From: Chloroflexota bacterium
GTDB lineage: Bacteria > Chloroflexota > Anaerolineae > DTLA01
Assembly (NCBI GenBank): GCA_014874485.1
Contig: JADBJK010000015.1
Span: 55,955 to 119,954 of the forward strand
Length of the DNA stretch: 64,000 nt
Direction of reading: 5' to 3'
The notes under the pieces are model-generated. The model searched no databases. It was not told the DNA's origin and worked only from the letters and a program-made list of their open reading frames with translations. Of the stretch, positions 10,470-31,161 are shown in pieces (the first letter of the stretch is position 1; each line of letters begins with the position of its first letter). The translations under genes were made by a program, and so were the position numbers.

Positions 10470-10521
10470 AACTATCAAGAATCCCTGTGGCAAAATACGA
10501 GGCGGATAGCCGAGGAATCCC

Positions 10522-10563: not shown

Positions 10564-10589
10564 GACGCCCTGGCCCCGTGGGATACAAT
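10562..10589 (+). promoter_or_regulatory. Sigma70-like promoter for the hoxW-hyp operon (TTGACG-N16-TACAAT)
   Basis: The hexamers lie immediately after the terminator T-tract, 58 nt upstream of hoxW. Confidence 0.4.
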
Positions 10590-10646
10590 AGCCAGGACAA
10601 CGCAAAGACGCGCTGAGACGTTCACGGGCGCGCTGGGACTGGACGG

Positions 10647-11132: not shown

Positions 11133-11138
11133 GTCGCC

Positions 11139-11480
11139 GTGCACGAACTGCCCGTTACCGAGCAAATCCTCAAGGTCGTGCTGGATCACGCGCGCAAGGC
11201 GGAGGCGCACCGCGTCGTGCACGTCAACCTCGTCATCGGCGACCTGACCACGTTCGTGGACGAGAGCATCCAATTCTACTTTGATTTCCTGTCGCGCGGG
11301 ACCGAGGCGGAGGGCGCGACCCTGCACATCCGCCGCATTCCGGCCCGCGTGCGGTGTCATGCCTGCGGCGGCGAGTTCGCGCCCGACGGCGTGGACTGGC
11401 GCTGCCCCCACTGCGGCGGCCTGGGCGGGGAAGTGCTCGCGGGCCGCGAGTCGTACATAGAGAGCATTGAGGTGGAATAG
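11139..11480 (+). CDS. hypA: Hydrogenase nickel insertion protein HypA
   Basis: The N-terminal MHE motif and the Zn site CHACGG...CPHCGG are present; the product is 113 aa. Confidence 0.85.
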   Translation: MHELPVTEQILKVVLDHARKAEAHRVVHVNLVIGDLTTFVDESIQFYFDFLSRGTEAEGATLHIRRIPARVRCHACGGEFAPDGVDWRCPHCGGLGGEVLAGRESYIESIEVE

Positions 11481-11485
11481 CCCCC

Positions 11486-12151: not shown

Positions 12152-12172
12152 GGGGAGAGGGCGGTCCCGGAC

Positions 12173-14560
12173 ATGGCCTCGGTTGTCGCCAATCGGTTCA
12201 AGGTAACCGGCGTGGTGCAGGGGGTGGGTTTCCGCCCCTTTGTGTACGGCCTGGCGGTGGGGCTGGGGCTGCGCGGCTGGGTCATCAACACGTCGTCGGG
12301 CGTGGTGATTGAGGTGGAAGGCCCGCCCGATGCCCTGGATGCCTTCGCGCGCGACCTGGTGGCGAAGGCCCCGCCCGTGGCGCGCATAGAGACCGTGCAG
12401 CGGGAGGAGATTCCGCCCAACGGCTGGGAGCGGTTTGAAATCCGCGAGAGCCGGGCCGAGGCTGGGTACGTGCTCATCTCGCCGGACATCGCCACCTGCC
12501 CCGAATGCCTGCGCGAACTGTTTGATCCCAACGACCGCCGCTACCGCTATCCGTTCATCAACTGCACCAACTGCGGGCCGCGTTTCACCATCATCGCCGA
12601 CGTGCCTTACGACCGGCCCCTGACCACCATGGCCGCGTTCCAAATGTGCCCGGAATGCCAGGCCGAGTACGATGACCCGCTGAACCGCCGATTCCACGCG
12701 CAGCCCAACGCCTGCCCCGTGTGCGGGCCGCGGGTGTGGCTTGTGCCCGCTTCGGCGCAGGACGCCGAGGCGCTGACCCCGCCCGCGGGCGACCCGGCCA
12801 ACGCCGAGGTGCTCGCCGAGGCAGCGCGCTTGCTGCGGGGAGGCGCCATCCTCGCCATCAAGGGCCTGGGCGGGTTCCACCTGGCCTGCGATGCGACCAA
12901 CCCCGACGCAGTGCGCACGCTGCGGGAACGCAAGCGCCGCCCGGCGAAGCCCTTGGCGGTGATGATGGCCTCGCTGGACGAGGTGCGCCAGCATTGCGAG
13001 ATCACGCCCGACGAGGAGGCGCTCCTGACCTCGCGCCAGTGCCCCATCGTCCTGCTGGAGTGGAAGCGCGACTCCACAGTTGTGGAGGAGGTGGCGCCGA
13101 ACAACCGCTACCTGGGCGTGATGCTCCCCTACACGCCGCTGCACCATATTCTGCTCCGCGACGCCGGGCGGCCGCTGGTCATGACGAGCGGCAACCTGTC
13201 GGAGGAGCCTATCGCGCAGGACAACGAGGAGGCCTGGCGTCGGCTGCGCGGCCTGGCCGATTGGTTTCTGCTCCACAACCGGGCCATCTACGCCCGCTAC
13301 GATGACAGCGTCTGGTTTGTGCCGCGCGTCCCCGACGGCAAGGCGGGTGCCGAGTCGGTGCCCCAGCCGCTGCGCCGCTCGCGGGGCTACGCGCCGTATC
13401 CCGTGCGCCTGCCCTTCCGCGCCCGCACGGTGCTGGCCACCGGCCCGGAACTCAAGAACACCTTCTGCATCACCCGCGACGAGCATGCCTTCGTTAGCCC
13501 CCACATCGGCGACATGGAGAACCTGGAGACGCTGGAGCACTACGAGACGGCCATGGGCCTCTACGAGCGGCTGTTCCGCCTGCGGCCTGATGCGATAGCC
13601 TGCGACCTGCACCCCGACTACCTGGCGACGCGCTACGCCCACGAGCGGGCCGAGCGGGAGCGCCTGCCCCTCATCGGCGTGCAGCACCACCACGCCCACA
13701 TCGCGGCGTGCATGGTGGACAACGGTATCACCGAGCCGGTCATCGGCGTGGCCCTGGACGGCACGGGGTACGGCCTGGACGGGCGAATCTGGGGCGGCGA
13801 GTGGCTGGTCGCCGACCTGCGCGGGTTCCGCCGCGCCGCGTGGCTGGAGCCGCTCCCGCTCCCCGGCGGCGACGCGGGCATCCGCAACCCGTGCCGCATC
13901 GCGTATGCGTACCTGCATGCGCTGTTCGGCGAAGTCCCCGCGCTGCCCTTCCTGGCGCAGATGGACGAGGCCGAAATCGCCGCCGTGCAGCGGCAGGTGG
14001 AGCGCGGCCTGAACACCGTTCTGACCACGTCCTGCGGCCGGCTGTTTGACGCCGTCGCAGCGATGGCCGGCGGGCGGGGCCGCGTTACCTACGAGGCGCA
14101 GGCGGCCATTGAGATGGAGATGGCATCGGAGGGCGACGAGGGCGACCCCTACGGGTACTTCTTCCGCTGGGCGGAGCCGCTCGCCTGGGGGAACACGGAT
14201 GCCTTGCCCCCGCTGGCCTGCGCCTTTGAGGTCGCCCTGAAGCCGCTGCTGGCGGGCGTCGTGCGCGATGTCCAGGCCGGGCGGATGCTGGGCGAAGTGG
14301 GCGGGCGCTTCCACCGCACGCTGGCGAACATGATCGCCGACCTGTGCTGCATGATCGCGCAGGGCACCGGCCTCGCGACGGTGGCCCTGTCGGGCGGGTG
14401 CTTCCAGAACCGCCTGCTGCTGGAACAGTCGGTGGGCGAACTCCGACGGCGCGGGCTGCGCGTGCTGCTGCACCGCCAGGTTCCGGCCAACGACGGCGGC
14501 GTGTCGCTGGGCCAGGCGGCCATCGGCCACTTTGCCCTTGAGGAGGGGCGGGCGCGATGA
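12173..14560 (+). CDS. hypF: Carbamoyltransferase HypF
   Basis: It contains an acylphosphatase domain (VQGVGFRPFVY), two CxxC...CxxC zinc fingers, and YrdC and Kae1-like domains, for 795 aa in total. Confidence 0.9.
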   Translation: MASVVANRFKVTGVVQGVGFRPFVYGLAVGLGLRGWVINTSSGVVIEVEGPPDALDAFARDLVAKAPPVARIETVQREEIPPNGWERFEIRESRAEAGYVLISPDIATCPECLRELFDPNDRRYRYPFINCTNCGPRFTIIADVPYDRPLTTMAAFQMCPECQAEYDDPLNRRFHAQPNACPVCGPRVWLVPASAQDAEALTPPAGDPANAEVLAEAARLLRGGAILAIKGLGGFHLACDATNPDAVRTLRERKRRPAKPLAVMMASLDEVRQHCEITPDEEALLTSRQCPIVLLEWKRDSTVVEEVAPNNRYLGVMLPYTPLHHILLRDAGRPLVMTSGNLSEEPIAQDNEEAWRRLRGLADWFLLHNRAIYARYDDSVWFVPRVPDGKAGAESVPQPLRRSRGYAPYPVRLPFRARTVLATGPELKNTFCITRDEHAFVSPHIGDMENLETLEHYETAMGLYERLFRLRPDAIACDLHPDYLATRYAHERAERERLPLIGVQHHHAHIAACMVDNGITEPVIGVALDGTGYGLDGRIWGGEWLVADLRGFRRAAWLEPLPLPGGDAGIRNPCRIAYAYLHALFGEVPALPFLAQMDEAEIAAVQRQVERGLNTVLTTSCGRLFDAVAAMAGGRGRVTYEAQAAIEMEMASEGDEGDPYGYFFRWAEPLAWGNTDALPPLACAFEVALKPLLAGVVRDVQAGRMLGEVGGRFHRTLANMIADLCCMIAQGTGLATVALSGGCFQNRLLLEQSVGELRRRGLRVLLHRQVPANDGGVSLGQAAIGHFALEEGRAR

Positions 14561-15654
14561 AGTTCATAGACGAGTTCCGCGACCCTCGGTTGGCCCGCTC
14601 GCTGGTGGAGCGCATCCGCCAGCGCGCGCGCAAGCCCATGCGCCTGATGGAGTTCTGCGGCGGACACACCCACGCCATCCTGCGATTCGGCATTCGCCAG
14701 GCGCTGCCGCCGACGGTGGAGATGCTGTCGGGGCCCGGGTGCCCGGTGTGCGTTACCGCCGCCGCGGACCTGGACCGGGCCATCGCCATGGCGGGTGTGC
14801 CGGGAGTCATCCTGGCCACCTTCGGCGACATGATCCGCGTGCCGGGGAGCCGCGAGAGCCTGCAGCAGGCCAAAGCGCGGGGCGCGGACATCCGCATCGT
14901 GTACTCGCCGCTGGACGCCGTGCGGCTGGCGGAGCAGAACCCGTCGCGGCCCGTGATCTTCCTGGGCGTGGGGTTTGAGACGACGGCCCCGGGCGTGGCG
15001 GCTTCCGTCCTGGACGCGCACGCGCGCGGGGTTGGCAACTACTACGTACTGTGCCTGCACAAACTCACGCCGCCCGCTACCCGCGCCATCTTGGATTCGG
15101 GCGAGGTCAACCTGTCGGGCGTCCTGGGGCCGGGACACGTTACCACCGTCATCGGGACGAAGGCGTGGGAGTTCCTGCCGCGCGAGTACGGCGTGCCCAT
15201 CGCCATCGCGGGATTTGAGCCGCTGGACATCCTGCGGGGCATCTCCCTGCTGGTGGAGCGGATTGCGGAGGGCGAGGCGCGCGTGGACAATGCCTATTCC
15301 CGCAGCGTGCTCCCGGAAGGGAATCGGGCGGCCCAGGACATGATGGCCCGCGTGTTTGAGGTGGCCGACGCCGAGTGGCGCGGGCTGGGGACGATACCGG
15401 CCAGCGGCCTGTGCATACGGCCGGAGTTCCAGGCCCACGACGCGGCGCGCGCGTTTCCGGTGGACGTGCCGCCGTCGCGGGAACCGCCAGGATGCCGCTG
15501 TGGGGACGTCTTGCGGGGCGTCTTGGCTCCGCCTTCGTGCCCGTTGTTCGGCAGAGCGTGCACGCCGGAGCACCCCGTCGGCCCGTGCATGGTGTCGGCC
15601 GAGGGGGCCTGCGCCGCCTACTATCAGTTTGGAGATGCGGGACATGAAGGATGA
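14557..15654 (+). CDS. hypD: Hydrogenase maturation factor HypD
   Basis: The motifs EFCGGHTHAI and GPGCPVCV are present. The start overlaps the hypF stop (ATGA). Confidence 0.85.
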   Translation: MKFIDEFRDPRLARSLVERIRQRARKPMRLMEFCGGHTHAILRFGIRQALPPTVEMLSGPGCPVCVTAAADLDRAIAMAGVPGVILATFGDMIRVPGSRESLQQAKARGADIRIVYSPLDAVRLAEQNPSRPVIFLGVGFETTAPGVAASVLDAHARGVGNYYVLCLHKLTPPATRAILDSGEVNLSGVLGPGHVTTVIGTKAWEFLPREYGVPIAIAGFEPLDILRGISLLVERIAEGEARVDNAYSRSVLPEGNRAAQDMMARVFEVADAEWRGLGTIPASGLCIRPEFQAHDAARAFPVDVPPSREPPGCRCGDVLRGVLAPPSCPLFGRACTPEHPVGPCMVSAEGACAAYYQFGDAGHEG

Positions 15655-16890: not shown

Positions 16891-17358
16891 TTGAACGACA
16901 AACTCCGTGAAGTCCTGCAAGCGCCGGTAACCGGCAAAGGAGACCTCATCCCGCTGCTCCAAAAGGCTCAGGAGGCCGAGGGATACGTCTCCGAGGAGGC
17001 CATCTACGCCATCGCCGAGAAACTGCGCATTCCCGCCAGCGAGGTGTTCGGCGTGTTGTCCTTCTACGCGCAGTTTCGGCTGCGTCCCATGGGCAAGCAC
17101 AACGTCAAGATATGCCGGGGCACGGCCTGCCACGTGCGCGGCTCGCCCCTTATCGTTACCGCTGTGGAGAGCGAACTGAAACTGGGCGGCGGCGAGGATA
17201 CGACTTCGGATGGCTTGTTCACGGTGGAGAAAATCGCCTGCTTCGGGGCGTGCAGCCTGGCGCCGGTGATGGTGGTGAACGGGCGCACCTACGGGAACCT
17301 GAGTCCGGACAAGGCGCGCCGCCTGATTCGCAAGATCGCGGAGGAAGAACATGTATAG
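16891..17358 (+). CDS. fdsG: NAD-dependent formate dehydrogenase gamma subunit (NuoE-like [2Fe-2S])
   Basis: The 155-aa product has the CRGTACHVRG...CFGACSLAP motif. It is a paralogue of hoxE. Confidence 0.75.
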   Translation: MNDKLREVLQAPVTGKGDLIPLLQKAQEAEGYVSEEAIYAIAEKLRIPASEVFGVLSFYAQFRLRPMGKHNVKICRGTACHVRGSPLIVTAVESELKLGGGEDTTSDGLFTVEKIACFGACSLAPVMVVNGRTYGNLSPDKARRLIRKIAEEEHV

Positions 17359-19210
17359 CGACTACGCCTCTTTGCGCGCCTGGGCCGAGGGCGAAGTGCA
17401 ACGCACCCGTCCGCCCGACCGAACCCGCATCCTCATCGGGCTGGGCACGTGCGGCATCGCCGCCGGCGGGCTGGACGTCCTGACAGCCCTGCGCGAGAAA
17501 CTGGCCGATATGCGCGTCCCTGCCGAGATCGTTCCCGTGGGCTGCATCGGCATGTGCTTTGAAGAGCCGCTGGTGGACATCGTAAGACCGGGCGAGCCTC
17601 GCATCTGCTACGCCAAGGTAACCCCCAAGAGCGTCCCGACCATTCTGGAAGAGCACCTACTCCACAACAACGTGCGCAAGGATTTGGCCTTCGCGGTCAT
17701 CGGCGACGAGCCTTACGACGGTATCCCATCGTGGAAGCAGTTGCCCTTCTTCGCCACCCAGCGACGAACGGTGCTGCGCAATTGCGGGTTCATTGACCCC
17801 GAATCGGTCGCCGAGTACATCGTCCACGATGGGTACGCCGCCCTGGCGAAGGCACTGTTTGAGATGACGCCCGAGTCCGTGATTGAGGAAGTGAAGCGGT
17901 CGGGGTTGCGCGGCAGGGGCGGCGCGGGGTTCCCAACGGGCATGAAGTGGGAATTCTGCCGAAAGTCCCCTGGCGACCACAAGTACATCATCTGCAACGC
18001 GGACGAGGGCGACCCTGGTGCCTTCATGAACCGTAGCGTCCTGGAGGGCGACCCCCACAGCGTGCTGGAGGGACTGCTCATCGCCGCCTACGCCATCGGT
18101 GCCGACCACGGCTACATCTACTGCCGCGCCGAGTATCCCCTGGCCATCGTGCGGCTGCGCAAGGCGCTGGAGCAGGCGCGGGCGCTGGGACTCCTGGGCG
18201 AGCACATCTTCGGCACCGACTTCAGTTTTGACGTAACCATCAAGGAGGGCGCGGGCGCGTTCGTCTGCGGCGAGGAGACCGCGCTCATGGCGTCCATAGA
18301 GGGCAAGCGCGGGATGCCCCGACCCCGCCCGCCGTTCCCCGCGCAGAAGGGCCTCTGGGGCCAGCCCACCAACATCAACAACGTGGAGACGCTGAACAAC
18401 ATCCCGCCCATCATCCTCAACGGCGCTGATTGGTTCGCTGCCGTGGGCACCGAGAAGAGCAAGGGCACCAAGACCTTCGCCCTGACAGGTAAAATCGCAA
18501 ACTCGGGACTGATAGAAGTCCCGCTCGGTATGCCGCTGCGCGAGATTATCTTTGAAATCGGCGGCGGCATCCCCAAAGGCAAGAAGTTCAAGGCCGCGCA
18601 GACAGGTGGTCCCTCAGGTGGGTGTATTCCGAGTTCCATGTTGGACATCCCGGTGGACTATGAGTCGCTAACCGCGGCCGGTTCCATCATGGGCTCCGGC
18701 GGGCTCGTCGTCATGGACGAGGACAACTGCATGGTTGACGTCGCGCGGTTCTTCCTCTCCTTCACCCAGAGCGAATCGTGCGGCAAATGCATTCCCTGCC
18801 GACTGGGCACCAAGCGCATGCTGGAGATACTAGAACGCATCACCCGAGGTGAGGGTCAGGAAGGCGACATAGAGTTGCTGCTGGAACTGTGCGAGACGGT
18901 GAAACTCGGGTCGCTGTGCGGGCTGGGCCAGACGGCTCCCAACCCCGTGTTGACCACCATCCGCTACTTCCGCGACGAGTACGAGGCCCATATCAAAGAG
19001 CACCGCTGCCCGGCCAAGGTGTGCAAGGCGCTCATCACCTACCGCATCTCCGAGGAGAAGTGCACCGGCTGCACCCTGTGCGCTCGCAACTGCCCCGTGG
19101 GTGCCATCAGCGGCGAGCGAAAGAAGGTGCACGTGATTGACCCGGCCGTCTGCACGCGCTGCGACACCTGTCGCCAGGTGTGCAACTTTGACGCGGTCCT
19201 CGTGGAATAG
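17351..19210 (+). CDS. fdsB: NAD-dependent formate dehydrogenase beta subunit (NuoF-like, FMN/NAD-binding, N-terminal 2Fe-2S and C-terminal 2x[4Fe-4S])
   Basis: The 619-aa product has the motifs GRGGAGFPTGMKWEF, CGKCIPCR and C-terminal CTGCTLCARNCP...CTRCDTCRQVC. Confidence 0.8.
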   Translation: MYSDYASLRAWAEGEVQRTRPPDRTRILIGLGTCGIAAGGLDVLTALREKLADMRVPAEIVPVGCIGMCFEEPLVDIVRPGEPRICYAKVTPKSVPTILEEHLLHNNVRKDLAFAVIGDEPYDGIPSWKQLPFFATQRRTVLRNCGFIDPESVAEYIVHDGYAALAKALFEMTPESVIEEVKRSGLRGRGGAGFPTGMKWEFCRKSPGDHKYIICNADEGDPGAFMNRSVLEGDPHSVLEGLLIAAYAIGADHGYIYCRAEYPLAIVRLRKALEQARALGLLGEHIFGTDFSFDVTIKEGAGAFVCGEETALMASIEGKRGMPRPRPPFPAQKGLWGQPTNINNVETLNNIPPIILNGADWFAAVGTEKSKGTKTFALTGKIANSGLIEVPLGMPLREIIFEIGGGIPKGKKFKAAQTGGPSGGCIPSSMLDIPVDYESLTAAGSIMGSGGLVVMDEDNCMVDVARFFLSFTQSESCGKCIPCRLGTKRMLEILERITRGEGQEGDIELLLELCETVKLGSLCGLGQTAPNPVLTTIRYFRDEYEAHIKEHRCPAKVCKALITYRISEEKCTGCTLCARNCPVGAISGERKKVHVIDPAVCTRCDTCRQVCNFDAVLVE

Positions 19211-19241
19211 CCACGGTTCTCGGATGGAAGGAGACGCAGAC

Positions 19242-21953
19242 ATGACCATTACGCTGACCATAGACGGCAAGACGGTGAGTGTGAAAGAGGGGGCCACGGT
19301 CCTGGATGCCGCCAAGGAAGCGGGCGTGTACATCCCCACCCTGTGCGCCGATGAGGACCTGCTGCCCTTTGGCGCGTGCCGCCTGTGCCTGGTAGAGGTG
19401 CAAGGCGACCGCAGGCCCATGCTCCCCTCGTGCACCACGCCTGCCACCGACGGGATGGTGGTGCGCACCTCCAGCCCGATTATTGACAAGACGCGGCGCA
19501 ACGTCGTGGAACTCTTGCTGTCCGACCACCCGGAGGACTGCTTGACCTGCCCGCAGAACAACCGCTGCGAACTCCAGCGCGTGGCGGCCTACGTGGGCGT
19601 CCGCACCAACCGCTTCCGCGGCGAGAAGCACGCCTACCCGATTGACGATTCCAACCCGTTCTACCGCCGCGATTTGGACCGCTGCATCCTGTGCGGCAAG
19701 TGCGTGCGCACCTGCGACGAGATTCAGCAACTGGGCGCCATCAACTTCGCCTACCGCGGCTTCCGCACCAAGATCGCGACCGTGCTGGACCGGCCGGTGG
19801 CGACTTCCACCTGCGAGTCGTGTGGGCAGTGCGTGGACAAGTGCCCGGTGGGCGCGCTGTACCCGGAGGCATGGCTACGGTACGGCCTGCCCGCCGCCGA
19901 GACGAAGACCATCTGCGCCTATTGCGGCGTGGGGTGTGGCCTGATCCTCCAGACGCGCGGCAACACGGTGGTGGGCGTCCGCGGCGACCCCGACAACCCC
20001 GTGAACCACGGCCGCACCTGCGTCAAGGGGCGGTTCGGATACGAGTTCATCAACCACCCAGACCGCCTGAAGAAGCCGCTCATCAAGAAAGACGGGGCCT
20101 TCGTGGAGGCCACCTGGGACGAGGCGCTTGACCTCGTGGCCCAGCGGCTGGCGTCGGTGGTGCGCGAACACGGCCCCGACGCGGTGGCACTGCTCACATC
20201 CGCAAAGTGCACCAACGAGGAGAACTACCTGCTCCAGAAATACGCAAGGGGGGTGCTGGGGACGCACAATGTGGACCATTGTGCGCGTCTCTGACACAGC
20301 AGCACCGTGACCGGTCTGGTCACAGCATTCGGCTCCGGGGCCATGACGAACTCCATTGAGGACATGAAGGAGGCCAAAGCCTTCCTCATCATCGGCTCCA
20401 ATACCACCGAGCAGCACCCCATCATCGGGCTAAACATCCGCAAGGCAGTGCGCGAGGGCGCGCGGCTCATCGTAGTGGACCCGCGCAGCACAGACCTGGC
20501 GAGGCGCGCCGACATCCACCTGTCCATTGATCCGGGGGGCAACATCGCCCTGCTCAACGGCCTGGCGCACATCATCCTGAAAGAGGGCTGGGAAGACAAG
20601 GAGTTCATCGCCTCCCGCACCGAGGGGTTTGACGAGTGGCGGGCGGTGGTGGAGAAATACACGCCCGAACGGGTCAGCGAGATCACCGGCGTTCCGGTGG
20701 AGCGCCTGTACGAGGCGGCGCGCCTGTACGCCACGACGAAGCCCGCCGCGCTGGTGTACGCCATGGGCGTAACCCAGCACACGTCGGGCCACCAGGGTGT
20801 GCAGGCGTGCGCCAACCTGCAAATGCTCACGGGGAACATGGGCATCCGTGGGGGTGGGGTCAACCCGTTGCGCGGCCAGAACAACGTGCAGGGCGCGTGC
20901 GACATGGGCTGCCTGCCCGACTTCTTCCCCGGCTACCAGCGCGTTGCCGACGACAAGGCCCGCGAGAAGTTCGCCCAGGCGTGGGGCGCTCGCTTCGGCG
21001 ACAAGCCCGGCCTCACCATCGTGGAGATGCTCAACGCCGCCGAGCAGGGGCGGCTCAAGGCGCTCTACGTTACCGGCGAGAACCCGGTCATGAGCGACCC
21101 CGACAGCCAGCATGTGGTCCACTGCCTGGAGAGCCTGGACTTCCTCGTGGTGCAGGACATCTTCCTCTCCGAGACGGCCCGCCTGGCCGACGTGGTGCTG
21201 CCCGCCGCGTCCTTCGCCGAGAAGGCCGGGACGTTCACCAACACCGAGCGGCGCGTCCAGTTGATTCGCCCCGCCATTGACCCGCCCGGCGAGGCGCGCC
21301 CCGATTGGGAGATCGTGGCCGACCTGGCCCGGCGCACGCTGAAGGCCCTCGGCCACACGCCCGACGGGCCATACGCTGGCTGGGATTACACATCCCCCGC
21401 CCAGATCATGGACGAAGCCGCGGCGCTGACGCCCATCTACGGGGGCATCCGCCACAGCCGCCTGGAGAACGGCGGAATCCAGTGGCCGTGCCCGTCTCCC
21501 GACCATCCGGGCACGCCCATCCTGCACGTCGGCAAGTTCTCGCGCGGTCTTGGAAAGTTCAATCCGGTGGAGTACATCCCACCCGCCGAGACGCCGGACG
21601 ACGCCTACCCGCTCATCCTCACGACCGGCCGCAGGCTGGAGCACTATCACACGGGCACCATGACGCGCCGCGTGGCCGGGCTGAACAAACTGGCCCCGGA
21701 GGAGCGCGTGGAGATCAACACAGAAGACGCGGCCCGCCTGGGCATCGCCGACGGCGACTGGGTCGTCGTGGAATCCAGGCGCGGCCGGGTGAAGGTGCGG
21801 GCGGCAGTGGGGCAGCGGTGCAAGCCGGGCGTGGTCTTCATGACGTTCCACTTCGCCGAGGCCCTGGGCAACGTGCTGACCCACACAGCGCTAGATCCCG
21901 TGTCCAAGATTCCGGAACTCAAAGTGGCCGCCGTTCGCGTGCTGCGGGCATAG
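19242..21953 (+). CDS. fdhA: Formate dehydrogenase alpha subunit, selenocysteine-containing (in-frame TGA at 20292..20294); molybdopterin/tungstopterin enzyme with an N-terminal NuoG-like Fe-S domain
   Basis: Track ORFs 19137..20294 and 20307..21953 are in the same frame and separated only by TGA. The flanking sequence VDHCARL-U-HSSTVTGL aligns residue-for-residue with E. coli FdhF VDHQARV-U-HGPSVAGL. The downstream region matches FdhF closely (RTEGFDEW, GVNPLRGQNNVQGACDMG). The RBS GGAAGGAG lies before ATG 19242. Confidence 0.85.
20307..20323 (+). other. SECIS-like hairpin 12 nt downstream of the fdhA UGA (GTGACC-GGTCT-GGTCAC)
   Basis: A perfect 6-bp stem with a GGUCU apical loop resembles the GGUC loop of the E. 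coli fdhF SECIS. Its position relative to the UGA is canonical. Confidence 0.5.
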
Positions 21954-23627: not shown

Positions 23628-24437
23628 ATGGCGGCTGCGATGCGCTGGGCGGGAATCTGCTTTGCCTATGTGGGCGCCATGGCGGGGCTGGCGGCGCTGG
23701 CCGGCCCTCGCCCCGACCTCGCGTACAGCCTCGCCCTCGTCCTGCCCGTCCCGCTCCTGTACGCCCTGTTCCGAAGCCGCACGCCGCCGACCGCACCCGC
23801 GCCGTGGTGGGCAGGCCTTGCGCTGTGGGCCTTCGTCGTGCTGTCGCGGGCAGGGGCGGCGGCGCTGGTGGCGGCTGGCCACGTCCCCTTTCGGGCACAC
23901 GGGTCCCTTTCCCTCGCGGCCACCGGCAGCCTGTTCCCCCTCGTGGCGCTGGCCATCCTGCTGGGCGAGCGGTCGGGCGGCGCTGCGTTCGGGTTCACGC
24001 CGCGGGGCGCGTTGCGGCAGATTCTGCTGGGCGCGGGGTTGGCGCTGGTGTTGCAGGCGGTCATGCGCGCGCCCGCCTGGGCGACAGGCGGGTTGCACGT
24101 GGGCGCGGGCGGCTTCGCGGCGCTGGCGCAGAGTTTTCCCGCTGAACTGATGACCATCGCCCTGGGCGAGGAGAGCCTGTTCCGCGGGTACATGCAGGTA
24201 ACCCTGCAGCGGCGCTATCCGTGGTGGTTTGCGACGTTTCTCATCTCCGTGCTCTTCGGCCTGTGGCATCTCCCCGCCGGGCTCTTCGCACCCAGCCTGC
24301 TGACCCTGTTCGGTGTGGTGGGCTTCCCCTTCGCGTTCGGGCTGCTGGCCGGGGTCATGTTCCACCTCACGGGGTCCATCCTGGGGCCGGTAGTGGCCCA
24401 CGCGCTCTACAACGCCGTGAACGCCATGTTCGCGTAA
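23628..24437 (+). CDS. CPBP-family intramembrane metalloprotease (CAAX protease/Abi)
   Basis: It is polytopic with the motifs GEESLFRGY (EExxxR), LFGLWH (FxxxH) and HALYNAV (HxxxN). The start was chosen at the ATG just after the dut stop. Confidence 0.7.
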   Translation: MAAAMRWAGICFAYVGAMAGLAALAGPRPDLAYSLALVLPVPLLYALFRSRTPPTAPAPWWAGLALWAFVVLSRAGAAALVAAGHVPFRAHGSLSLAATGSLFPLVALAILLGERSGGAAFGFTPRGALRQILLGAGLALVLQAVMRAPAWATGGLHVGAGGFAALAQSFPAELMTIALGEESLFRGYMQVTLQRRYPWWFATFLISVLFGLWHLPAGLFAPSLLTLFGVVGFPFAFGLLAGVMFHLTGSILGPVVAHALYNAVNAMFA

Positions 24438-24667
24438 CTGCCGAGTTCGGTTCCGGGGTTTGTTGGAGACGGCCAGAAGCGGGGTGTTCCGCGCGTGGAG
24501 CAGGTTTCCAAACCTGCCCCCGCCTCTGAATTGACAGCATGTCGCCCACGCGTATAATAGGCCCAGAGTCGTCTCTGTGCATATCACGGTGCGCTTTCGG
24601 CCTGGGGCAGAAAGCGCGCCTTGACTTTGCAGGGACGGCATTTCAGCGTTTTGCGAGGGAGCAGACG

Positions 24668-25225
24668 ATGATTTCGGTAACCGAACTGCGCAAAGGCGTA
24701 ACCTTTGAAATGGACGGCGAACTGTACCGCGTGCTGGACTATCAGCACCACAAGCCGGGGCGCGGCAACGCGGTCATCCGCACACGCCTGCGCAACCTGC
24801 GCTCGGGCGCGACCATTGACCGCACCTTCCAGTCGGGCGACCGCGTGCAGGACGTGCGGCTGGACCACCGCACCGTTCAGTATCTGTACAACGACGGCGA
24901 GTTCTACCACTTCATGGACGTGGAGACCTACGAGCAGCCCATCCTCAGCGCCGACGTGCTGGGCGACGCCGCCAAGTACCTGGTGGACGGCCTGACCGTT
25001 GAACTCATCTCCTACGGCAGCGAGCCGATTGAGGTGGAACTGCCGGTAACCGTGGACATGCGCGTTACCGAGACCGAGGCTGCCATCAAGGGCGACACGG
25101 CCACCGGCGCGACCAAAGACGCCGTTACCGAGACCGGCCTGGTGGTCAAGGTGCCGCTGTTCGTGGCCGAGGGCGACGTGATCCGCGTGGACACGCGAAC
25201 GGGCGAGTACCTGACCCGCGTGTAG
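24668..25225 (+). CDS. efp: Translation elongation factor P
   Basis: It contains the KPGRGNA loop and has the EF-P length and domain order of 185 aa. Confidence 0.9.
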   Translation: MISVTELRKGVTFEMDGELYRVLDYQHHKPGRGNAVIRTRLRNLRSGATIDRTFQSGDRVQDVRLDHRTVQYLYNDGEFYHFMDVETYEQPILSADVLGDAAKYLVDGLTVELISYGSEPIEVELPVTVDMRVTETEAAIKGDTATGATKDAVTETGLVVKVPLFVAEGDVIRVDTRTGEYLTRV

Positions 25226-25311
25226 GCGGCGCAGAACGGCGCATTTGGCGCGGGCCCGGCCTGCGCGAATCGGCAGGGCGCAAGGGACAGTGCGAGGCGG
25301 CCCCTCGCGAT

Positions 25312-25340
25312 TTGACTGTCCCTCTTCCTGTGGCTATAAT
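25312..25340 (+). promoter_or_regulatory. Promoter TTGACT-N17-TATAAT overlapped by inverted repeat GGGACAGT...ACTGTCCC (25284..25322), a candidate GntR operator
   Basis: The hexamers have 17-nt spacing. An 8-bp inverted repeat with GT...AC character spans the -35. Confidence 0.45.
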
Positions 25341-25370
25341 ATGTCAGACATCAGACAAAGGGGTGTGTGG

Positions 25371-26111
25371 ATGCGACTGAAATACGACTCCCGTCCCCTC
25401 TACCTCCAGGCCGAGGAGGCCCTCAGTCGCCTTATCCAAGATGGCACGTACCGCATCGGAGACCGCCTGCCGCCCGAGCCGGAACTGGCCCAGCGTCTGG
25501 GGATTTCGCGGGCCACGCTCCGCGAAGCCCTGCGCGCCTTTGAGGACAAGGGCCTTATCACCCGCCGTCGCGGGCTGGGGACCTTCATCACCGCGCCCGT
25601 TCCCCTCATAGACAGCGGCCTGGAGCAACTGGAGAGCCTGGACTCCCTGGCCCGCCGCATGGGCCTCGTCTGCACCACCGAGGATTTGGAAATCCGGGAG
25701 GAGCCGGCCGCGCAGGAAATCGCCTCGCGGCTCGGAATCGCGCCAGGCGACGCGGTCATCACCGTGGGCCGCACGAAAGTTACCAACGGCGTCATCGCCG
25801 CCTACATGTACGACGTGCTCCCCGCCTGGGTTACCGACATCGCCTCGCTCAAGGCGTCGTTCAAGGGGTCCGTCCTGGACTACCTGCTGGAGCGCGGTGT
25901 TCCTTTGAGTTTCGCCTGGACGAACATCATCGCGACGCGCGCGGACCCCGTTGTCGCCGCCAAGTTGCGCGTCAAGCCGAGCACTGTACTTCTGCTGTTG
26001 GAGGAGGTTACGTACACCCACGACAACCAGATTGCAGGCTACTCGCAGAACTACTTCTTGCCCAGCGTGTTCAAGTTCCACCTGATTCGCCGTATTGTCC
26101 CATCGCGTTAG
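25371..26111 (+). CDS. GntR-family transcriptional regulator with UTRA effector domain (HutC subfamily)
   Basis: It has an N-terminal wHTH (GDRLPPEPELAQRLGISRATLREALRAFEDKGLI) and a C-terminal UTRA-like domain. The 25371 ATG was chosen because the 25341 ATG abuts the -10 element. Confidence 0.75.
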   Translation: MRLKYDSRPLYLQAEEALSRLIQDGTYRIGDRLPPEPELAQRLGISRATLREALRAFEDKGLITRRRGLGTFITAPVPLIDSGLEQLESLDSLARRMGLVCTTEDLEIREEPAAQEIASRLGIAPGDAVITVGRTKVTNGVIAAYMYDVLPAWVTDIASLKASFKGSVLDYLLERGVPLSFAWTNIIATRADPVVAAKLRVKPSTVLLLLEEVTYTHDNQIAGYSQNYFLPSVFKFHLIRRIVPSR

Positions 26112-26143
26112 GACAAAAACAACTATTCTGAAAGGAGAGACGT

Positions 26144-27214
26144 ATGAAAACAGAGAGTTTCCGTGGCAAGGACTTCATCACCCTGTTGGACTGGACGCGG
26201 GAGGAAGTGGAGACCATCCTGGACGTGGCGCTGGACCTGAAGCGGCGCTACGCCATGCGCGAGCCCCACGACCACCTGCTCCGCGCACGCACCCTGTTCA
26301 TGATCTTCTACAACCAGAGCCTGCGCACCCGTAACTCGTTTGAGGCCGGCATGACCCAACTGGGCGGCCATGCCCACTACCTGGACCCGGGCAAGATTTA
26401 CACCCCGGCGCTCCCTGGCAAGGAGGTGGCCTACTCCACCGAGCGCGTCTCCGACGTGGCGCGTGTGCTGGCCCGCATGGGCGACGCCATCGCCATCCGC
26501 TGCTACGGCGACCCGGTGGACTGGGTGTACGGCGGCGCTAACGAACTGATCCGCAACTTCGCCTACTGGGCCGACATCCCCGTGCTCAACATGGAGGACG
26601 ACAAGTACCATCCGTTCCAGGCCCTGGCCGACATCCTCACGGTCAAGGAGAAGTTCGGCACGTTCAAGGGCGTCAACTTCGTCATGAGTTGGGCCTACTC
26701 GCCCAGCATCCACAAGCCCCGCGCCGTGCCCCAGAGCGCCATCATCGCGGCGACCATGATGGGCATGAACGTTACCCTCGCGCACCCCGAGGGCATGGAA
26801 CTGGACCCCGAAGTGCTGGCGGCGTGCGAGGCCAACGCGCGGCACAACGGCGGCTCGTTCAAGATCAGCCACGACATGCGCGAGGCGTTCAAGGGCGCGC
26901 ACGTGGTGTATCCCAAGGCCTGGTGCGCGACGCCCATCTTCAAGCCCCCGGTAGGCGAGGACGACCCGAAGAAGACCCAGCAGATCTTTGACAGCCACAA
27001 GGACTGGATTTGCGACGCCGAGAAGATGCGCCTCACGGACCCGGAGAGCATCTACCTGCACTGCCTGCCCTGCGACCGCGGGTACGAGGTAACCGACGAG
27101 GTCATTGACAACACGACCCGCTCCAAAGAGCGCCCGTGGCTGTCGGCCGCCTACGACGAGGCGGAGAACCGCCTGCACGTCCAGAAGGCCGTCATGAGCC
27201 TGGTCATGAGTTAG
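26144..27214 (+). CDS. Carbamoyltransferase, OTC/ATC superfamily paralogue 1 (YgeW/knotted-type or catabolic OTC-like; substrate unknown)
   Basis: It has an SxRTR carbamoyl-phosphate motif (SLRTRNSFE), HPFQALADI and HCLPCDRG, with C-terminal insertions relative to canonical OTC. Confidence 0.7.
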   Translation: MKTESFRGKDFITLLDWTREEVETILDVALDLKRRYAMREPHDHLLRARTLFMIFYNQSLRTRNSFEAGMTQLGGHAHYLDPGKIYTPALPGKEVAYSTERVSDVARVLARMGDAIAIRCYGDPVDWVYGGANELIRNFAYWADIPVLNMEDDKYHPFQALADILTVKEKFGTFKGVNFVMSWAYSPSIHKPRAVPQSAIIAATMMGMNVTLAHPEGMELDPEVLAACEANARHNGGSFKISHDMREAFKGAHVVYPKAWCATPIFKPPVGEDDPKKTQQIFDSHKDWICDAEKMRLTDPESIYLHCLPCDRGYEVTDEVIDNTTRSKERPWLSAAYDEAENRLHVQKAVMSLVMS

Positions 27215-27329
27215 CCCACCGCGCGAGCGAGATTCCCTTCACCACAGAAAACCCGGCGACCGCAGGGCGAAGCGCAGACCTCCGCGATCTCCGCGGTCTC
27301 TGTGGTGAATCATTCGGAGGTACGAAAAG

Positions 27330-28373
27330 ATGGATCTGTTCGGCAAGGATTTGATCACAACCCAGGAATGGACCAAGGAAGAACTGGATGCCGTGCTGGA
27401 CCTGGCGGCGAAGATGAAGCGCGACCGCTTCAACCCGCGCTTCACCAGCCTGCTGCAGAACAAGACGTTCTTCATGTTCTTCTACAACCCGTCGGTGCGG
27501 ACGCGCCAGAGTTTTGAGTGCGCCGCCACCGAACTCGGCGGCCATGCCCAGTTCCTGGAGCCGAAGGCCATGCGCCTGAAGACGGCAACCAGCGCGGGCG
27601 AGACGGTGGAGGACGCCGCCAAAGTTATGGACCGCTACGCCGCGGGCCTGGGCATCCGCATCCTGGAGGACAAGATCGGCGCGTATGGCGAGGGCGACGA
27701 CCTCATCCGCGAGTACGCCTACTGGGCCCGAATGCCCGTCTTCTCCATGGCGCACGACAAGTATCACCCGTTCCAGGGCCTGGCCGACATCATGGGCTGG
27801 GCCGAATGGTACGGCAAAGGCCCAGGCCAGACGCTGGACATGAGCGTGCTCAAGGGCAAGAAACTGCTCGTTACCTGGGGGCACGGGGCACTGGCCCGCT
27901 CGTGGTGCTCGGTGCAGGAGGCGCTGCTCATCGGCTCCCGCTACGGGATGCACGTAACCCTGGCGCACCCCGAAGGGTATCCGCTGGATCCCCAGGTCAT
28001 TGAGTGGACGCGGGCCAACTGCCAGGCCAACGGCACCACGTTTGAGGAGACCACCGACGTGCGCGAGGGGTACGTGGGCGCGCATGTGGTGTACTCGCGC
28101 CACTGGATGAGCCCCGATGCGTACAAGGATGGCGAGTTCCTCAAGCAGCAGGAGATTGAGCGGGCGCTGAAACTCACCGAGTGGATTTGCGACGCCGAGA
28201 AGATGCGCCTGACCGACAACGCCATCTTCACCCATCCCATGCCCATTGACCGCGGCCACGAGGTTACCGACGAGGTCGCCAGCGGCCCGCGCTCGTGCAT
28301 CTACGACGTGGCCGAGAACCGCCTGCACGTGCAGAAGGCCGTCATGGCCCTGACCATGTCGGGCCTTCTGTAG
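27330..28373 (+). CDS. Carbamoyltransferase, OTC/ATC superfamily paralogue 2 (substrate unknown)
   Basis: It has SVRTRQSFE and HPFQGLADI, and HPMPIDRG in place of HCLP. It shares about 40% similarity with paralogue 1. Confidence 0.7.
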   Translation: MDLFGKDLITTQEWTKEELDAVLDLAAKMKRDRFNPRFTSLLQNKTFFMFFYNPSVRTRQSFECAATELGGHAQFLEPKAMRLKTATSAGETVEDAAKVMDRYAAGLGIRILEDKIGAYGEGDDLIREYAYWARMPVFSMAHDKYHPFQGLADIMGWAEWYGKGPGQTLDMSVLKGKKLLVTWGHGALARSWCSVQEALLIGSRYGMHVTLAHPEGYPLDPQVIEWTRANCQANGTTFEETTDVREGYVGAHVVYSRHWMSPDAYKDGEFLKQQEIERALKLTEWICDAEKMRLTDNAIFTHPMPIDRGHEVTDEVASGPRSCIYDVAENRLHVQKAVMALTMSGLL

Positions 28374-28407
28374 GCCATACCCATACCACACAAAGGAGTG
28401 CGTCGTT

Positions 28408-29352
28408 ATGACGAAGAAAGTCGCAGTGGTTGCCATCGGCGGCAACTCGCTCATCAAGGACAAGAATCATCAGACGGTTCCCGACCAGTACCAGGCCGCC
28501 AAGGAGACTTGCTACCACATCGCGGGCATGATTGAGCAGGGCTGGGATGTGGCCATCGGCCACGGCAACGGGCCGCAGGTGGGGTTCATCCTGCGCCGCA
28601 GCGAATTGGCCCGCCACGAACTGCACGAGGTGCCGCTGGACGTGTGCGGGGCCGATACCCAGGGCGCCATCGGCTACATGCTCCAGCAGAACTTGCAGAA
28701 CGAGTTCCTGCGACGCGGCATGAAGAAGCAGGCCGTTACCGTCGTTACGCAGGTGGTGGTGGATCGCAACGACCCCGCCTTCCAGAACCCGAGCAAGCCC
28801 ATCGGCTCGTTCATGACCGAGGAGGAGGCCAAGCGCCGCCGCGACCTGGAGGGCTGGCACGTGGTGGAGGATGCTGGGCGCGGCTGGCGGCGGGTTGTCC
28901 CGTCCCCCCTGCCGCAGAAGGTGAAGGAGCAGGACGCGGTTGAGGAGTTGCTCAGCAAGGGGTTCGTGGTGATCACCGTGGGCGGGGGCGGCATCCCCGT
29001 CGTGGAGAACGAGAAGGGCGAACTAGAGGGCGTCGCCGCGGTGATTGACAAGGACTACGCCTCGTCGCTCCTGGCCCGCAGCATCAAGGCCGACCTGTTC
29101 CTCATCTCCACCGCCGTGGAGAAGGTGTACCTGAATTACGGCAAGCCCGACCAGAAGGCCATTGACCGCATGACCGTGGCCGAGGCCAAGCAGTACATGG
29201 CCGAGGGCCACTTCGCCAAAGGCTCCATGCTCCCGAAGATTCAGGCCATCATCTGGTTCCTGGAGGCGGGCGGCAAGCAGGCCATCATCACCAACCCGGA
29301 GAACATTGAGCGCGCGCTGCGTGGTGAGACGGGCACGCTCATTGTTCCGTAG
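28408..29352 (+). CDS. arcC: Carbamate kinase
   Basis: It has an amino-acid-kinase fold (VVAIGGNSL...GHGNGPQVG) and a carbamate-kinase C-terminus (GSMLPKIQAI). Confidence 0.8.
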   Translation: MTKKVAVVAIGGNSLIKDKNHQTVPDQYQAAKETCYHIAGMIEQGWDVAIGHGNGPQVGFILRRSELARHELHEVPLDVCGADTQGAIGYMLQQNLQNEFLRRGMKKQAVTVVTQVVVDRNDPAFQNPSKPIGSFMTEEEAKRRRDLEGWHVVEDAGRGWRRVVPSPLPQKVKEQDAVEELLSKGFVVITVGGGGIPVVENEKGELEGVAAVIDKDYASSLLARSIKADLFLISTAVEKVYLNYGKPDQKAIDRMTVAEAKQYMAEGHFAKGSMLPKIQAIIWFLEAGGKQAIITNPENIERALRGETGTLIVP

Positions 29353-29452
29353 CGACTTCGCGCTACCGCATTCTGAAACGTCGGGGACAATGGGGTCTCC
29401 GGCGTTTCTCTTTTGCAGGGAGTGGGAAGGCGCACAGGGATTTTTGGTGGTA

Positions 29453-30082
29453 TGTCATTGCGAGGGGCGAAGCCCCGAAGCAATCCCTGGGACGTGAGAT
29501 TGCTTCGCTTCGCTCGCAATGACGGAGAAGGCACTTGCGACGCACCTCCGAGGTGCGTCGCAAGTGGGCCGACTGGATTGCTTCGCTTCGCTCGCAATGA
29601 CAGCAAAGGGGTTGTCATTGCGAGGGGCGCAGCCCCGAAGCAATCCCCGGGGCGCGAGATGGCTTCGCTTCGCTCGCAATGACGGAGAATGCACGTGCGA
29701 CGCACCTCCGAGGTGCGTCGCACGTGGGCCGACTGGATTGCTTCGCTTCGCTCGCAATGACAGCAAAGGGGTTGTCATTGCGAGGGGCGCAGCCCCGAAG
29801 CAATCCCCGGGGCGCGAGATGGCTTCGCTTCGCTCGCAATGACGGAGAATGCACGTGCGACGCACCTCCGAGGTGCGTCGCACGTGGGCCGACTGGATTG
29901 CTTCGCTTCGCTCGCAATGACAGCAAAGGGGTTGTCATTGCGAGGGGCGCAGCCCCGAAGCAATCCCCGGGGTGCGAGATTGCTTCGCTTCGCTCGCAAT
30001 GACGGAGAAGACACTTGCGACGCACCTCCGAGGTGCGTCGCAAGTGGGCCGACTGGATTGCTTCGCTTCGCTCGCAATGACA
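29453..30082. repeat. Tandem array of about four 160-bp composite units built from MITE-family modules (each unit has TGTCATTGCGAG termini and a 13-bp-stem hairpin CTTGCGACGCACCTC-CGAG-GTGCGTCGCAAG)
   Basis: The unit period is exactly 160 bp (29610/29770/29930). Units are near-identical and there are no unique spacers. Confidence 0.8.
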
Positions 30083-30102
30083 GGTGCCGCGCTGCATCCC
30101 CA

Positions 30103-31161
30103 TCACGGTTCCTCCAGCGCCGCCAGTTCCGTCAGCCTGGCCCAATCGTAGTTCTCGCGCCACAGGAAATAGCCGCCGAGGACGAAGATGGGGAGGTACA
30201 CGATGGCGTGAAGCACAATCCCGCACGCCAGGGCCAGCGCGGGGTCAACCCCGTACAGCCCCAGCGTGAGCACGCACAGGTAATGGAAAACGCCGATGCG
30301 CCCAGGCGACGACGGCACGATGATGCCGATGTTCAGGATGGCCAGCAGGAGCGGGGCCGCCGTCCACGGAAGGCGCAGGCCAAACGCCCAGAAGACGAGG
30401 GCGTTGGTGAGAATCATCAGCGCCCAGTTGCCCGCCGACCAGCACCAGAGCACCAGGTTCATGCGCAGGCTCTTGAGCGGGCGCAGGCTCAGCGCGGCCC
30501 GCTGCACCGCGCCCATGACCCCCAGCCGCCCCAGCCACGACTCGGGCCCCACCATCCGCACCACCCAGGCGGGCAGGCGGCCCTCCCACCGCGAGAGCGC
30601 CGTCATCGCCGCCAGGAGCACCACCATCCCGCCGCTCACGAAGAGCGACGACCCCTTGACCCACGACGGGAAGGGCATGAACACCGATGTTACCAGCACC
30701 ACCAGGAGCAGCATGAGGCTGTCCAGCGCCTTCTCCAGCACGATGGTGCCCAGCACATACGCGCCGCTGACGGATTCTATCCGCGCCAGCAGGTACGCCC
30801 GCGCGATCTCGCCCAGGCGCGCGGGAAGCGCCGCGTTGACCGCCTGGCCGATGTAGATGACGCTCATCAGTTTGCCGAGGCGCCGCTCCCTGTGTTCGGG
30901 GTAGAACAGGGCCTTCCAGCGGGCGGCTTTCACGGCCTGCGTCGCCAGGAACGCCGCCAGCGCCGCGCCCACCAGCCACGCATTCGCCTGGCGCAGGGCT
31001 TCCCACACCTCGCGCAGGTGCACCTGTCTGAAGGCGAGCCACAGGAACAGCACGCTCAACAGCGTGCCTGCGATGAGGCCCAGGTTCCGTCGCGTGCGGT
31101 TCGGGGATGCGGTGCGAATGGGTACCTCCTCGGCGCGCCCCGCGTCCTGGGGCGAGCGCAA
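30103..31161 (-). CDS. UPF0104/LPG-synthase-TM (flippase-like) integral membrane protein
   Basis: It has 7-8 predicted TM helices and the conserved GRIGVFHY region. Confidence 0.55.
   Translation of the reverse strand: MRSPQDAGRAEEVPIRTASPNRTRRNLGLIAGTLLSVLFLWLAFRQVHLREVWEALRQANAWLVGAALAAFLATQAVKAARWKALFYPEHRERRLGKLMSVIYIGQAVNAALPARLGEIARAYLLARIESVSGAYVLGTIVLEKALDSLMLLLVVLVTSVFMPFPSWVKGSSLFVSGGMVVLLAAMTALSRWEGRLPAWVVRMVGPESWLGRLGVMGAVQRAALSLRPLKSLRMNLVLWCWSAGNWALMILTNALVFWAFGLRLPWTAAPLLLAILNIGIIVPSSPGRIGVFHYLCVLTLGLYGVDPALALACGIVLHAIVYLPIFVLGGYFLWRENYDWARLTELAALEEP

Follow-up and report, generated by a model that had tools for sequence, protein, structure and literature searches.

What does a bacterium do with two diverged carbamoyltransferases and a carbamate kinase when neither a deiminase nor an antiporter is encoded beside them? 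The question is raised by a 64,000-nucleotide stretch of DNA from an uncultured Chloroflexota bacterium of the class Anaerolineae (assembly GCA_014874485.1, contig JADBJK010000015.1, positions 55,955 to 119,954), which we call the window. Between 25.3 and 29.4 kb of the window, four tightly packed genes on the + strand encode a GntR/UTRA regulator, two paralogous transferases (CT1 and CT2) and a carbamate kinase (CK). In agreement with a first-pass annotation made from the letters of the sequence, no deiminase or antiporter was found among the open reading frames (ORFs) of the window scanned with Pfam and NCBIfam, those at 1-22 kb being read by eye only. That annotation had also proposed an ATP-yielding carbamoyl-phosphate route acting on a non-canonical ureido substrate, and our analysis supports this core reading. 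On balance, we think it probable that the operon serves the anaerobic degradation of purines (uric acid) by a route of the reductive 2,8-dioxopurine type, as its lower, energy-conserving module.

The identities of the three enzyme genes agree with the first-pass annotation, which had described two members of the ornithine carbamoyltransferase (OTC) superfamily followed by a carbamate kinase. CT1 (26144-27214, + strand, 356 aa) and CT2 (27330-28373, + strand, 347 aa) both consist of OTCace_N and OTCace domains and are 43% identical paralogues; CT1 carries the motifs SLRTR (residues 59-63), HPFQ and HCLP (306-309), and CT2 the motifs SVRTR (55-59), HPFQ and HPMP (302-305). The kinase (28408-29352, + strand), of the ArcC/YqeA type, scores 397.7 with the equivalog model TIGR00746 (cut-off 358.25) and 427 with NF009007 (cut-off 266), and is 49% identical to E. 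coli YqeA; judged by these models, it is a bona fide carbamate kinase.

The transferases are harder to place. Public records label both families as OTC or N-acetylornithine carbamoyltransferase (AOTC), and we compared the two proteins with the curated NCBIfam models, whose cut-offs are 288 for AOTC (NF003384), 453 and 500 for YgeW (NF005538 and TIGR03316), 281-306 for OTC (281 for TIGR00658) and 500 for putrescine transcarbamylase (PTC, TIGR04384). With the AOTC model, CT1 scores 289.0, right at the threshold, and CT2 222.2, below it. Both are far under the YgeW cut-offs (168/157 for CT1 and 113/107 for CT2) and under those of the OTC models (229-231 and 185-204 bits; 229 and 185 with TIGR00658), the aspartate transcarbamylase (ATCase) models are far under cut-off for both, and CT2 stays below the cut-off of every curated NCBIfam family. 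The PTC scores (187 and 169 bits) lend no support to putrescine, one of the substrates suggested in the first-pass annotation. The OTC motif DxxxSMG is absent, and the equivalent position reads YPKAW... in CT1 and YSRHW... in CT2.

The best solved relative of both proteins, in sequence as in structure, is the AOTCase of Xanthomonas campestris (PDB 3kzc; 213 bits and 43% identity for CT1, 174 bits and 35% for CT2), which ranks above Pyrococcus OTC and YgeW. An AlphaFold2 model of CT2 (pLDDT 81) has the generic fold and is closest to AOTCase 3kzk (TM 0.82-0.85). The specificity of AOTCase is set by Glu92, Asn185 and Lys302, together with Trp77 of the 80's loop (PMC4581275). In our alignment of 79 CT1-type and 42 CT2-type sequences, Glu92 is replaced by Thr in CT1 and by Gly in CT2, and Lys302 by Glu in both; Asn185 corresponds to Pro (CT1) or Ser (CT2) in pairwise alignments and to a gap in the multiple alignment, and Trp77 to Thr in CT1 (70 of the 79 sequences) and to a gap in CT2. 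Apart from the Trp77 position of CT1 and the alignment-dependent Asn185, these replacements are invariant in both sets. Because the specificity residues are replaced, DxxxSMG is absent and most family models stay under cut-off, the naming of both families as OTC or AOTC is probably wrong.

A neighbour-joining tree (the first-pass annotation had proposed a phylogeny as a check) places CT1 and CT2 in two clean sister clades beside AOTCase, followed by YgeW and then OTC. The tree was built without bootstrap and its deep branches are very short (0.01-0.04), so it does not fix the branching order of AOTC, YgeW and the CT clades. By sequence, CT1 and CT2 belong to no characterised family, be it YgeW, AOTC, OTC or PTC. 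The insertions reminiscent of knotted or YgeW-type transcarbamylases that had been noticed earlier hold in one respect, since the 120's loop is extended in both proteins, the same as in AOTCase; the extra N- and C-terminal helices and the 240's-loop insertion of YgeW (396 aa) are absent from both in the alignment. The proline-rich loop of the knotted group is present in CT1, and its counterpart in CT2 (GHGALARSWCS) has no proline.

Both transferases are probably active transcarbamylases, because all residues that bind carbamoyl phosphate are invariant in the two families: the Ser, Arg, Thr and Arg of SxRTR, and Arg112, His148, Gln151 and Arg322 in AOTC numbering. Their second-substrate pockets, which the first-pass annotation had singled out for inspection, differ from each other. 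The CT1 loop WAYSPSIHKPRAVPQ is nearly the same as the YgeW loop WAYSPSYGKPLSVPQ, the common pattern being W-A-Y-S-P-S-x-x-K-P-x-x-V-P-Q. S200, K203 and K270 of YgeW are putative second-substrate residues (PMC4581275), and CT1 has equivalents of all three (Lys258 for K270), conserved in the 79 sequences, whereas CT2 does not. CT1 also retains the equivalents of Glu144 and Lys252 of AOTCase. Overall, CT1 and CT2 are 37% and 33% identical to YgeW, and the N-domains of both are closer to AOTCase; for CT1 the N-domain is 40% identical to AOTCase vs 30% to YgeW, and the C-terminal, second-substrate domain 43% to AOTCase and 46% to YgeW. In CT2 the pocket is distinct: compared with AOTCase, E144 is changed to A, K252 to R and HCLP to HPMP, and the "proline-rich" loop is free of proline. 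These four features are invariant in the 42 sequences and recur in separately aligned homologues from Asgard archaea. ATCases carry Pro at the second position of HxLP, and the group that they carbamoylate is an alpha-amino group (PMC4581275); the ATCase-like Pro of HPMP hints, but only hints, that CT2 may handle an alpha-ureido acid.

Two further types of transferase came to light in the collected loci. In L142 (8884-9870) and L143 (9980-10996), a single transferase of 338 aa has the YgeW-type motifs QCDVDHPCQ, WAYAPSYAKPLSVPQ and HPLP and is without the YgeW insertions; it stands with a bona fide YgeY (568 bits) within a full XDH-YgeY-YgfK-SsnA cluster (XDH, xanthine dehydrogenase) that also encodes an 8-oxoguanine deaminase. 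In evolution, this short enzyme may stand between YgeW and CT1. Another three loci (L125, L139 and L144) have a third arrangement, CT2-CK-CT1'-ThrS-like, in which CT1', a divergent CT1 subtype with the loop WAYSGSIEKPRAVPQ, shares 54-57% identity with CT1.

To see in what company these genes travel, we used 142 loci in total (80 from genomes with CT1 as the anchor, 57 from metagenomes with CT2 as the anchor, and a few further CT2-anchored contigs), annotated by clustering, tblastn and Pfam/NCBIfam; four of them (L001, L002, L089 and L102) are 98-99% identical relatives, and P0121, on an NCBI MAG contig of 65.2 kb, matches exactly. CT1 and CT2 occur together in 73 of the 142 loci, CT1 preceding CT2 every time, with a gap of at most 300 bp in 47 of the 73. 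The kinase follows CT2 in 49 of these 73 loci and in 21 of the 31 that have CT2 only, and is present in just 2 of the 36 with CT1 only: the kinase tracks CT2. The two transferases can also be encoded apart, as in L015 and L085, which lie 25 kb from each other on one contig. The CT2 family keeps at least 75% identity from Chloroflexota to Asgard archaea. The CT2-type transferases of a Heimdallarchaeota contig (L083, 982-2034) and a Hodarchaeum contig (L087, 2245-3294) are 75-77% identical to the bacterial one, and on both contigs the order is CK-CT2, with a HyuA-like hydantoinase gene a few kb away. This would imply a recent transfer of the module between domains.

Which ureido compound could such enzymes cleave? 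Two studies of 2025 described a reductive uric-acid (2,8-dioxopurine) pathway (bioRxiv 10.1101/2025.04.24.650524; PMC12507026; PMC12990295). In anaerobes, urate is reduced to 2,8-dioxopurine by XdhD or XdhAC, dearomatised by YgfK, and opened by SsnA and HyuA to give 2,3-diureidopropionate, with two ureido groups (bioRxiv 10.1101/2025.04.24.650524; PMC12507026; PMC12990295). YgeW takes one ureido group as carbamoyl phosphate, from which YqeA makes ATP (bioRxiv 10.1101/2025.04.24.650524; PMC12507026); YgeY hydrolyses the second, and YgeX deaminates diaminopropionate to pyruvate (bioRxiv 10.1101/2025.04.24.650524; PMC12507026; PMC12990295). The genes of this pathway recur beside CT1 and CT2. In L110, one run on the + strand reads CT1-CT2-CK-YgfK-like-SsnA, with an SsnA of 562 bits (cut-off 444) and a YgfK-like reductase of 830 aa that combines Fer4_20 and Pyr_redox_2. 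In L121, L122 and L134, genes for a hydantoinase, a YgfK-like reductase and an SsnA of 520 bits are divergent from PALP-CT1-CT2-CK followed by a ThrS-like pyridoxal-phosphate (PLP) enzyme. YgeY, YgeW and YgeX are absent from all four of these loci. The Anaerolineae clusters have two transferases, as many as 2,3-diureidopropionate has ureido groups. XDH subunits, GntR, PALP, CT1, CT2, CK and a YgfK homologue (40% identity) are found together in L022, CT2-CK-YgfK in L123, and CT2-CK beside an XDH FAD/FeS subunit in L124. Loci with CT1 only hold an SsnA-like amidohydrolase, a hydantoinase, an F420-type LLM oxidoreductase, XDH and AOR, a pattern that corresponds to the Chloroflexota cluster variant remarked on in PMC12507026. 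A bona fide YgeY stands directly upstream of CT1 in seven loci. Among the substrates listed in the first-pass annotation, ureido compounds from purine breakdown thereby gain comparative-genomic support from the co-localised SsnA, YgfK-like reductase, hydantoinase, XDH subunits and YgeY. Circumstantial support comes from a cultured relative, Thermoflexus hugenholtzii, in which consumption detected by exometabolomics was limited to adenine and adenosine and an "OTC" gene adjoins a carbamate kinase gene (PMC8129789).

Other recurrent neighbours are a flavin reductase, a CysK/SbnA-like PALP enzyme and an ABC transporter of the Bmp/PnrA type. The ThrS-like PLP enzyme is encoded in 24 of the 73 loci with both transferases and, among the 80 genome loci collected through CT1, in 18. 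No YgeX homologue was detected in any locus (E <= 1e-10, at least 50% coverage), and the ThrS-like and CysK-like PALP enzymes encoded downstream in related loci are candidate substitutes for YgeX.

Within the window, a tblastn search with Chloroflexota representatives and E. coli proteins matched only CK and a YgeY-family M20 hydrolase (57320-58504, + strand; NF009555 444 bits, cut-off 321), which is 41% identical to E. coli YgeY. It is unlinked, lying 28 kb from the operon, and is a possible pathway partner. A sugar transferase (55672-57099) adjoins it. Other Anaerolineae have this same pair directly upstream of CT1 or CT2 (L018, L047, L050 and L085), which suggests that a rearrangement separated the pair from the operon in the lineage of the window.

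Based on the complementarity of YgeY and the two-transferase arrangement, the YgeW-type loop of CT1 and the coupling of CT2 to the kinase, we propose the following mechanism. CT1, with its YgeW substrate loop, would phosphorolyse one ureido group of a 2,3-diureidopropionate-type intermediate to carbamoyl phosphate. CT2, with its ATCase-like HPMP and invariant pocket, would phosphorolyse the remaining ureido group, a step carried out in E. coli through hydrolysis by YgeY. CK would use each carbamoyl phosphate to phosphorylate ADP, for a yield of up to two ATP per purine vs one in E. coli, and a PLP enzyme whose gene lies elsewhere would deaminate the leftover diaminopropionate. Our boldest suggestion, which we advance tentatively and as a possibility, is that CT2 represents a transcarbamylase family that is new and that acts by phosphorolysis on the second ureido group of 2,3-diureidopropionate; both carbamoyl groups of a purine would then be kept as carbamoyl phosphate, and substrate-level ATP formation from urate in the absence of oxygen would be doubled compared with E. 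coli. The group cleaved by CT2 would then probably be the alpha (2-) group. As in the YgeW/YqeA system of E. coli, a catabolic transcarbamylase is here paired with a carbamate kinase, and SsnA, a YgfK-like reductase, a hydantoinase, XDH and YgeY accompany related loci; unlike in E. coli, there are two transferases, not one, and the ring-opening genes are not adjacent in the window, where only YgeY occurs. The urate pathway of C. difficile, in which the hydrolase UacY replaces YgeW/YqeA, likewise treats the ureido-cleaving steps as interchangeable modules. The direction is opposite, however: C. difficile forgoes ATP by hydrolysis, and in the Anaerolineae variant one more enzyme of phosphorolysis appears to have been added.

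Several observations weigh against this assignment to purine degradation. No homologue of SsnA, YgfK/LLM, hydantoinase, XDH or diaminopropionate ammonia-lyase is encoded in the 64 kb, and a uricolytic marker lies within 10 kb in only about 10 of the 73 loci with CT1 and CT2, many of the contigs being short. The operator motif described below was not found upstream of the YgeY gene of the window by matrix scan. In the AlphaFold2 model of CT1, pLDDT is below 50 for residues 44-126 of the N-domain, so the comparison of pockets is one of sequence alignments only. The published accounts disagree, moreover, over which ureido group YgeW cleaves (PMC12990295). Finally, YgeY coexists with CT1 and CT2 in L018, L050 and the genome of the window; since the two thus occur together in several lineages, CT2 is no plain substitute for YgeY, and we have ruled out a role as its strict replacement.

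A serious rival, although we judge it unlikely, is that the chemistry is the same and the substrates are others, the two transferases serving two alternative substrates and not consecutive steps. Candidates are N-carbamoyl-beta-alanine and beta-ureidoisobutyrate, which would stem from the reductive breakdown of pyrimidines; N-carbamoyl amino acids, derived from hydantoins; and allantoate, ureidoglycine or oxalurate, formed when purines are degraded oxidatively. The most plausible of these is pyrimidine-derived N-carbamoyl-beta-alanine, because a dihydropyrimidinase-type hydantoinase and a reductase resembling dihydropyrimidine dehydrogenase lie nearby in related loci: the hydantoinase matches TIGR02033 (dihydropyrimidinase/D-hydantoinase, 537 bits), and the YgfK-like reductase has the Fer4_20 domain of dihydropyrimidine dehydrogenase. 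A transcarbamylase with a catabolic role on beta-alanine has also been postulated (PMC4581275). That CT1 and CT2 are separable, 25 kb apart in the case of L015 and L085, that the Asgard loci have CK-CT2 and no CT1 nearby, and that most CT1-CT2-CK loci show no pathway marker would also fit alternative substrates. Pyrimidine degradation, however, yields only one ureido group, and most loci have the two transferases in one operon; bona fide SsnA, the uricolytic marker, as well as XDH subunits and YgeY, is encoded beside the transferases in related loci, and CT1 shares the substrate loop of YgeW. Among the oxidative candidates, ureidoglycine is served by a transcarbamylase of the ATCase branch, whose motif is H(T/S)LP (PMC4581275). 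The oxamate transcarbamylase activity of E. coli belongs to the unrelated AllFGH (PMC11326118), and the oxamate or oxalurate mentioned in the first-pass annotation is likewise not supported. A quite improbable alternative would make CT1 and CT2 a single hetero-oligomeric enzyme in which CT2 is non-catalytic or regulatory and only one ureido group is processed. The fixed order of the two genes, their tight linkage in 47 of 73 loci, the trimer interfaces that 43% identical paralogues could share and the loss from CT2 of two second-substrate residues of the knotted enzymes could be read in this way; against it, the carbamoyl-phosphate residues of CT2 are all invariant and so is its altered pocket, CT2 and the kinase occur without CT1 in Asgard archaea and in L085, and CT1 occurs alone with SsnA-like and hydantoinase genes.

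The least credible of the explanations that we considered is the one implied by the public annotation, namely that these are arginine-pathway enzymes: CT1 would be an anabolic AOTC or OTC with the kinase serving as carbamoyl-phosphate synthase, or else the pair would be a catabolic OTC of the arginine deiminase (ADI) type with arcA elsewhere. It can point to those records, to the AOTC score of CT1 just at the cut-off, to AOTCase as the best PDB match of both proteins, and to the Thermoflexus paper, which placed equivalent genes in the ADI pathway and in a urea-cycle role (PMC8129789). AOTCase is anabolic, however, and AOTC genes, like those of N-succinylornithine carbamoyltransferase, normally lie in arg clusters (PMC4581275), whereas the CT genes keep company with carbamate kinase and purine-catabolic genes and never with arg genes: tblastn with E. 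coli ArgB, ArgC, ArgG and ArgH found nothing in the 142 loci or the window save a purB cross-hit. E92, N185, K302 and W77 of AOTCase are conserved in neither CT1 nor CT2, and E144 and K252 are missing from CT2 as well. The first-pass annotation had named a place within canonical OTC clades as an outcome that would refute its reading; neither paralogue falls there, the OTC motif being absent and the OTC models below cut-off. The operon does resemble the arginine and agmatine deiminase pathways (OTC or PTC with ArcC) in that phosphorolysis of a ureido compound gives carbamoyl phosphate, from which carbamate kinase makes ATP; it differs from them in its two transferases, in its PTC scores and in its regulator, a HutC-type catabolic repressor and not ArgR, and no deiminase or antiporter was found in the window.

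How the putative purine module is controlled can be read in part from its 5' end. The regulator (25371-26111, + strand, 246 aa) combines an N-terminal winged helix-turn-helix domain with a C-terminal UTRA effector domain (GntR PF00392, 71 bits; UTRA PF07702, 85 bits; both above cut-off), which places it in the HutC subfamily of GntR regulators, as the first-pass annotation had it. The gene is where that annotation put it, but its start is likely the ATG at 25371, rather than 25284 or 25245. The best NCBIfam models (HutC and PhnF) are all under cut-off (89 vs 220 bits for HutC), and by this measure the protein is not an orthologue of HutC itself; its closest solved structures are 2ra5 and YvoA/NagR. 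A GntR homologue lies upstream of CT1 in about 25 related loci.

A predicted sigma-70-type promoter (TTGACT-17-TATAAT, 25312-25340, + strand) agrees with the consensus at 11 of 12 positions, and 25000-29700 contains no other such site; from it, a transcript would begin at about 25347. Equivalent TTGACA/TATAAT pairs lie 5' of the GntR gene in related loci. The operator that the first-pass annotation had suspected at the regulator's own promoter is conserved: the candidate GntR/HutC site TGTCAGACATCAGACAAA (25342-25359, + strand) comes directly after the -10 box, and upstream of GntR orthologues that are 35-55% identical, TTGACA-17-TATAAT is followed within a few bases by GT[CA]AGAC[AG]T[CA]NNAC. 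Scored with a position weight matrix derived from 15 sites of orthologues, the operator reaches 29 bits and is a single site in the 64-kb window, with no second operator, for instance 5' of the YgeY gene. Applied to 1.69 Mb of related loci, the same matrix, in a scan that is partly circular because it was trained on some of the same sites, finds 22 sites of at least 20 bits, of which 20 lie within 93 bp upstream of a GntR gene and two upstream of CT1, and none elsewhere. This conserved 18-bp candidate operator abutting the -10 box supports autorepression, and its position would imply repression by occlusion of the promoter. In our model, the HutC-type GntR would repress the whole unit through this operator, and repression would be relieved by a pathway intermediate bound to the UTRA domain; E. 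coli, by comparison, uses the sigma-54 activator YgeV.

Because the promoter precedes the regulator gene and a terminator-like hairpin follows CK (29375-29408, + strand; 14-bp stem, then TCTTTT, 23 nt past the stop codon), the regulator, CT1, CT2 and CK look like one autoregulated transcription unit. The spacer between CT1 and CT2 (115-121 nt) contains a computed hairpin (27239-27308, + strand; fold of -42.6 kcal/mol, z = -1.95 vs shuffles), which has no Rfam match and might be an element of mRNA processing or stability. No riboswitch or other RNA was matched by Rfam in 24000-31000 (E <= 0.1). Directly 3' of the terminator, at 29453-30083, lies a 160-bp tandem repeat, present in 3.9 copies that are 97% identical and nesting a sub-period of 82 bp; it is the source of many spurious ORFs with translations of the "CERSEAI/LRFARNDS" type.

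If the purine assignment holds, fermentative, energy-limited Anaerolineae, and apparently some Asgard archaea, would gain extra ATP from purines. The reductive urate pathway is new (2025) and its order of ureido cleavage is disputed (PMC12990295); the specificities of two dedicated transcarbamylases could settle which intermediate forms, albizziin or 3-amino-2-ureidopropionate. Annotation would also be corrected for two large families, each with more than 5,000 database matches at E <= 1e-20, which are now annotated as OTC/AOTC and counted as arginine metabolism or the ADI pathway in metagenomic reconstructions. The conserved pair of promoter and operator, in turn, represents a defined regulatory system.

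The rest of the window holds some features of separate interest. The alpha subunit of a formate dehydrogenase (19137-21953, + strand) has an in-frame TGA at 20292-20294, within VDHCARL-U-HSSTV, which splits it; very likely, a single gene here encodes an enzyme that contains selenocysteine. Upstream of it (1829-15654 and 16891-19210), reading the translations by eye, we recognised a large cluster of genes for an NAD-linked hydrogenase, hyp maturation and NuoE/F-like proteins. At 62039-62827 (+ strand), a weak match (41 bits) to a MobA-like NTP transferase may represent a molybdenum-cofactor nucleotidyltransferase, reminiscent of mocA in the ygeW-xdhD region of E. coli. Finally, a single ORF of 874 aa at 49711-52335 (+ strand) joins a Mur ligase, whose middle and C-terminal domains are MurF-like, to an alanine racemase that is complete.

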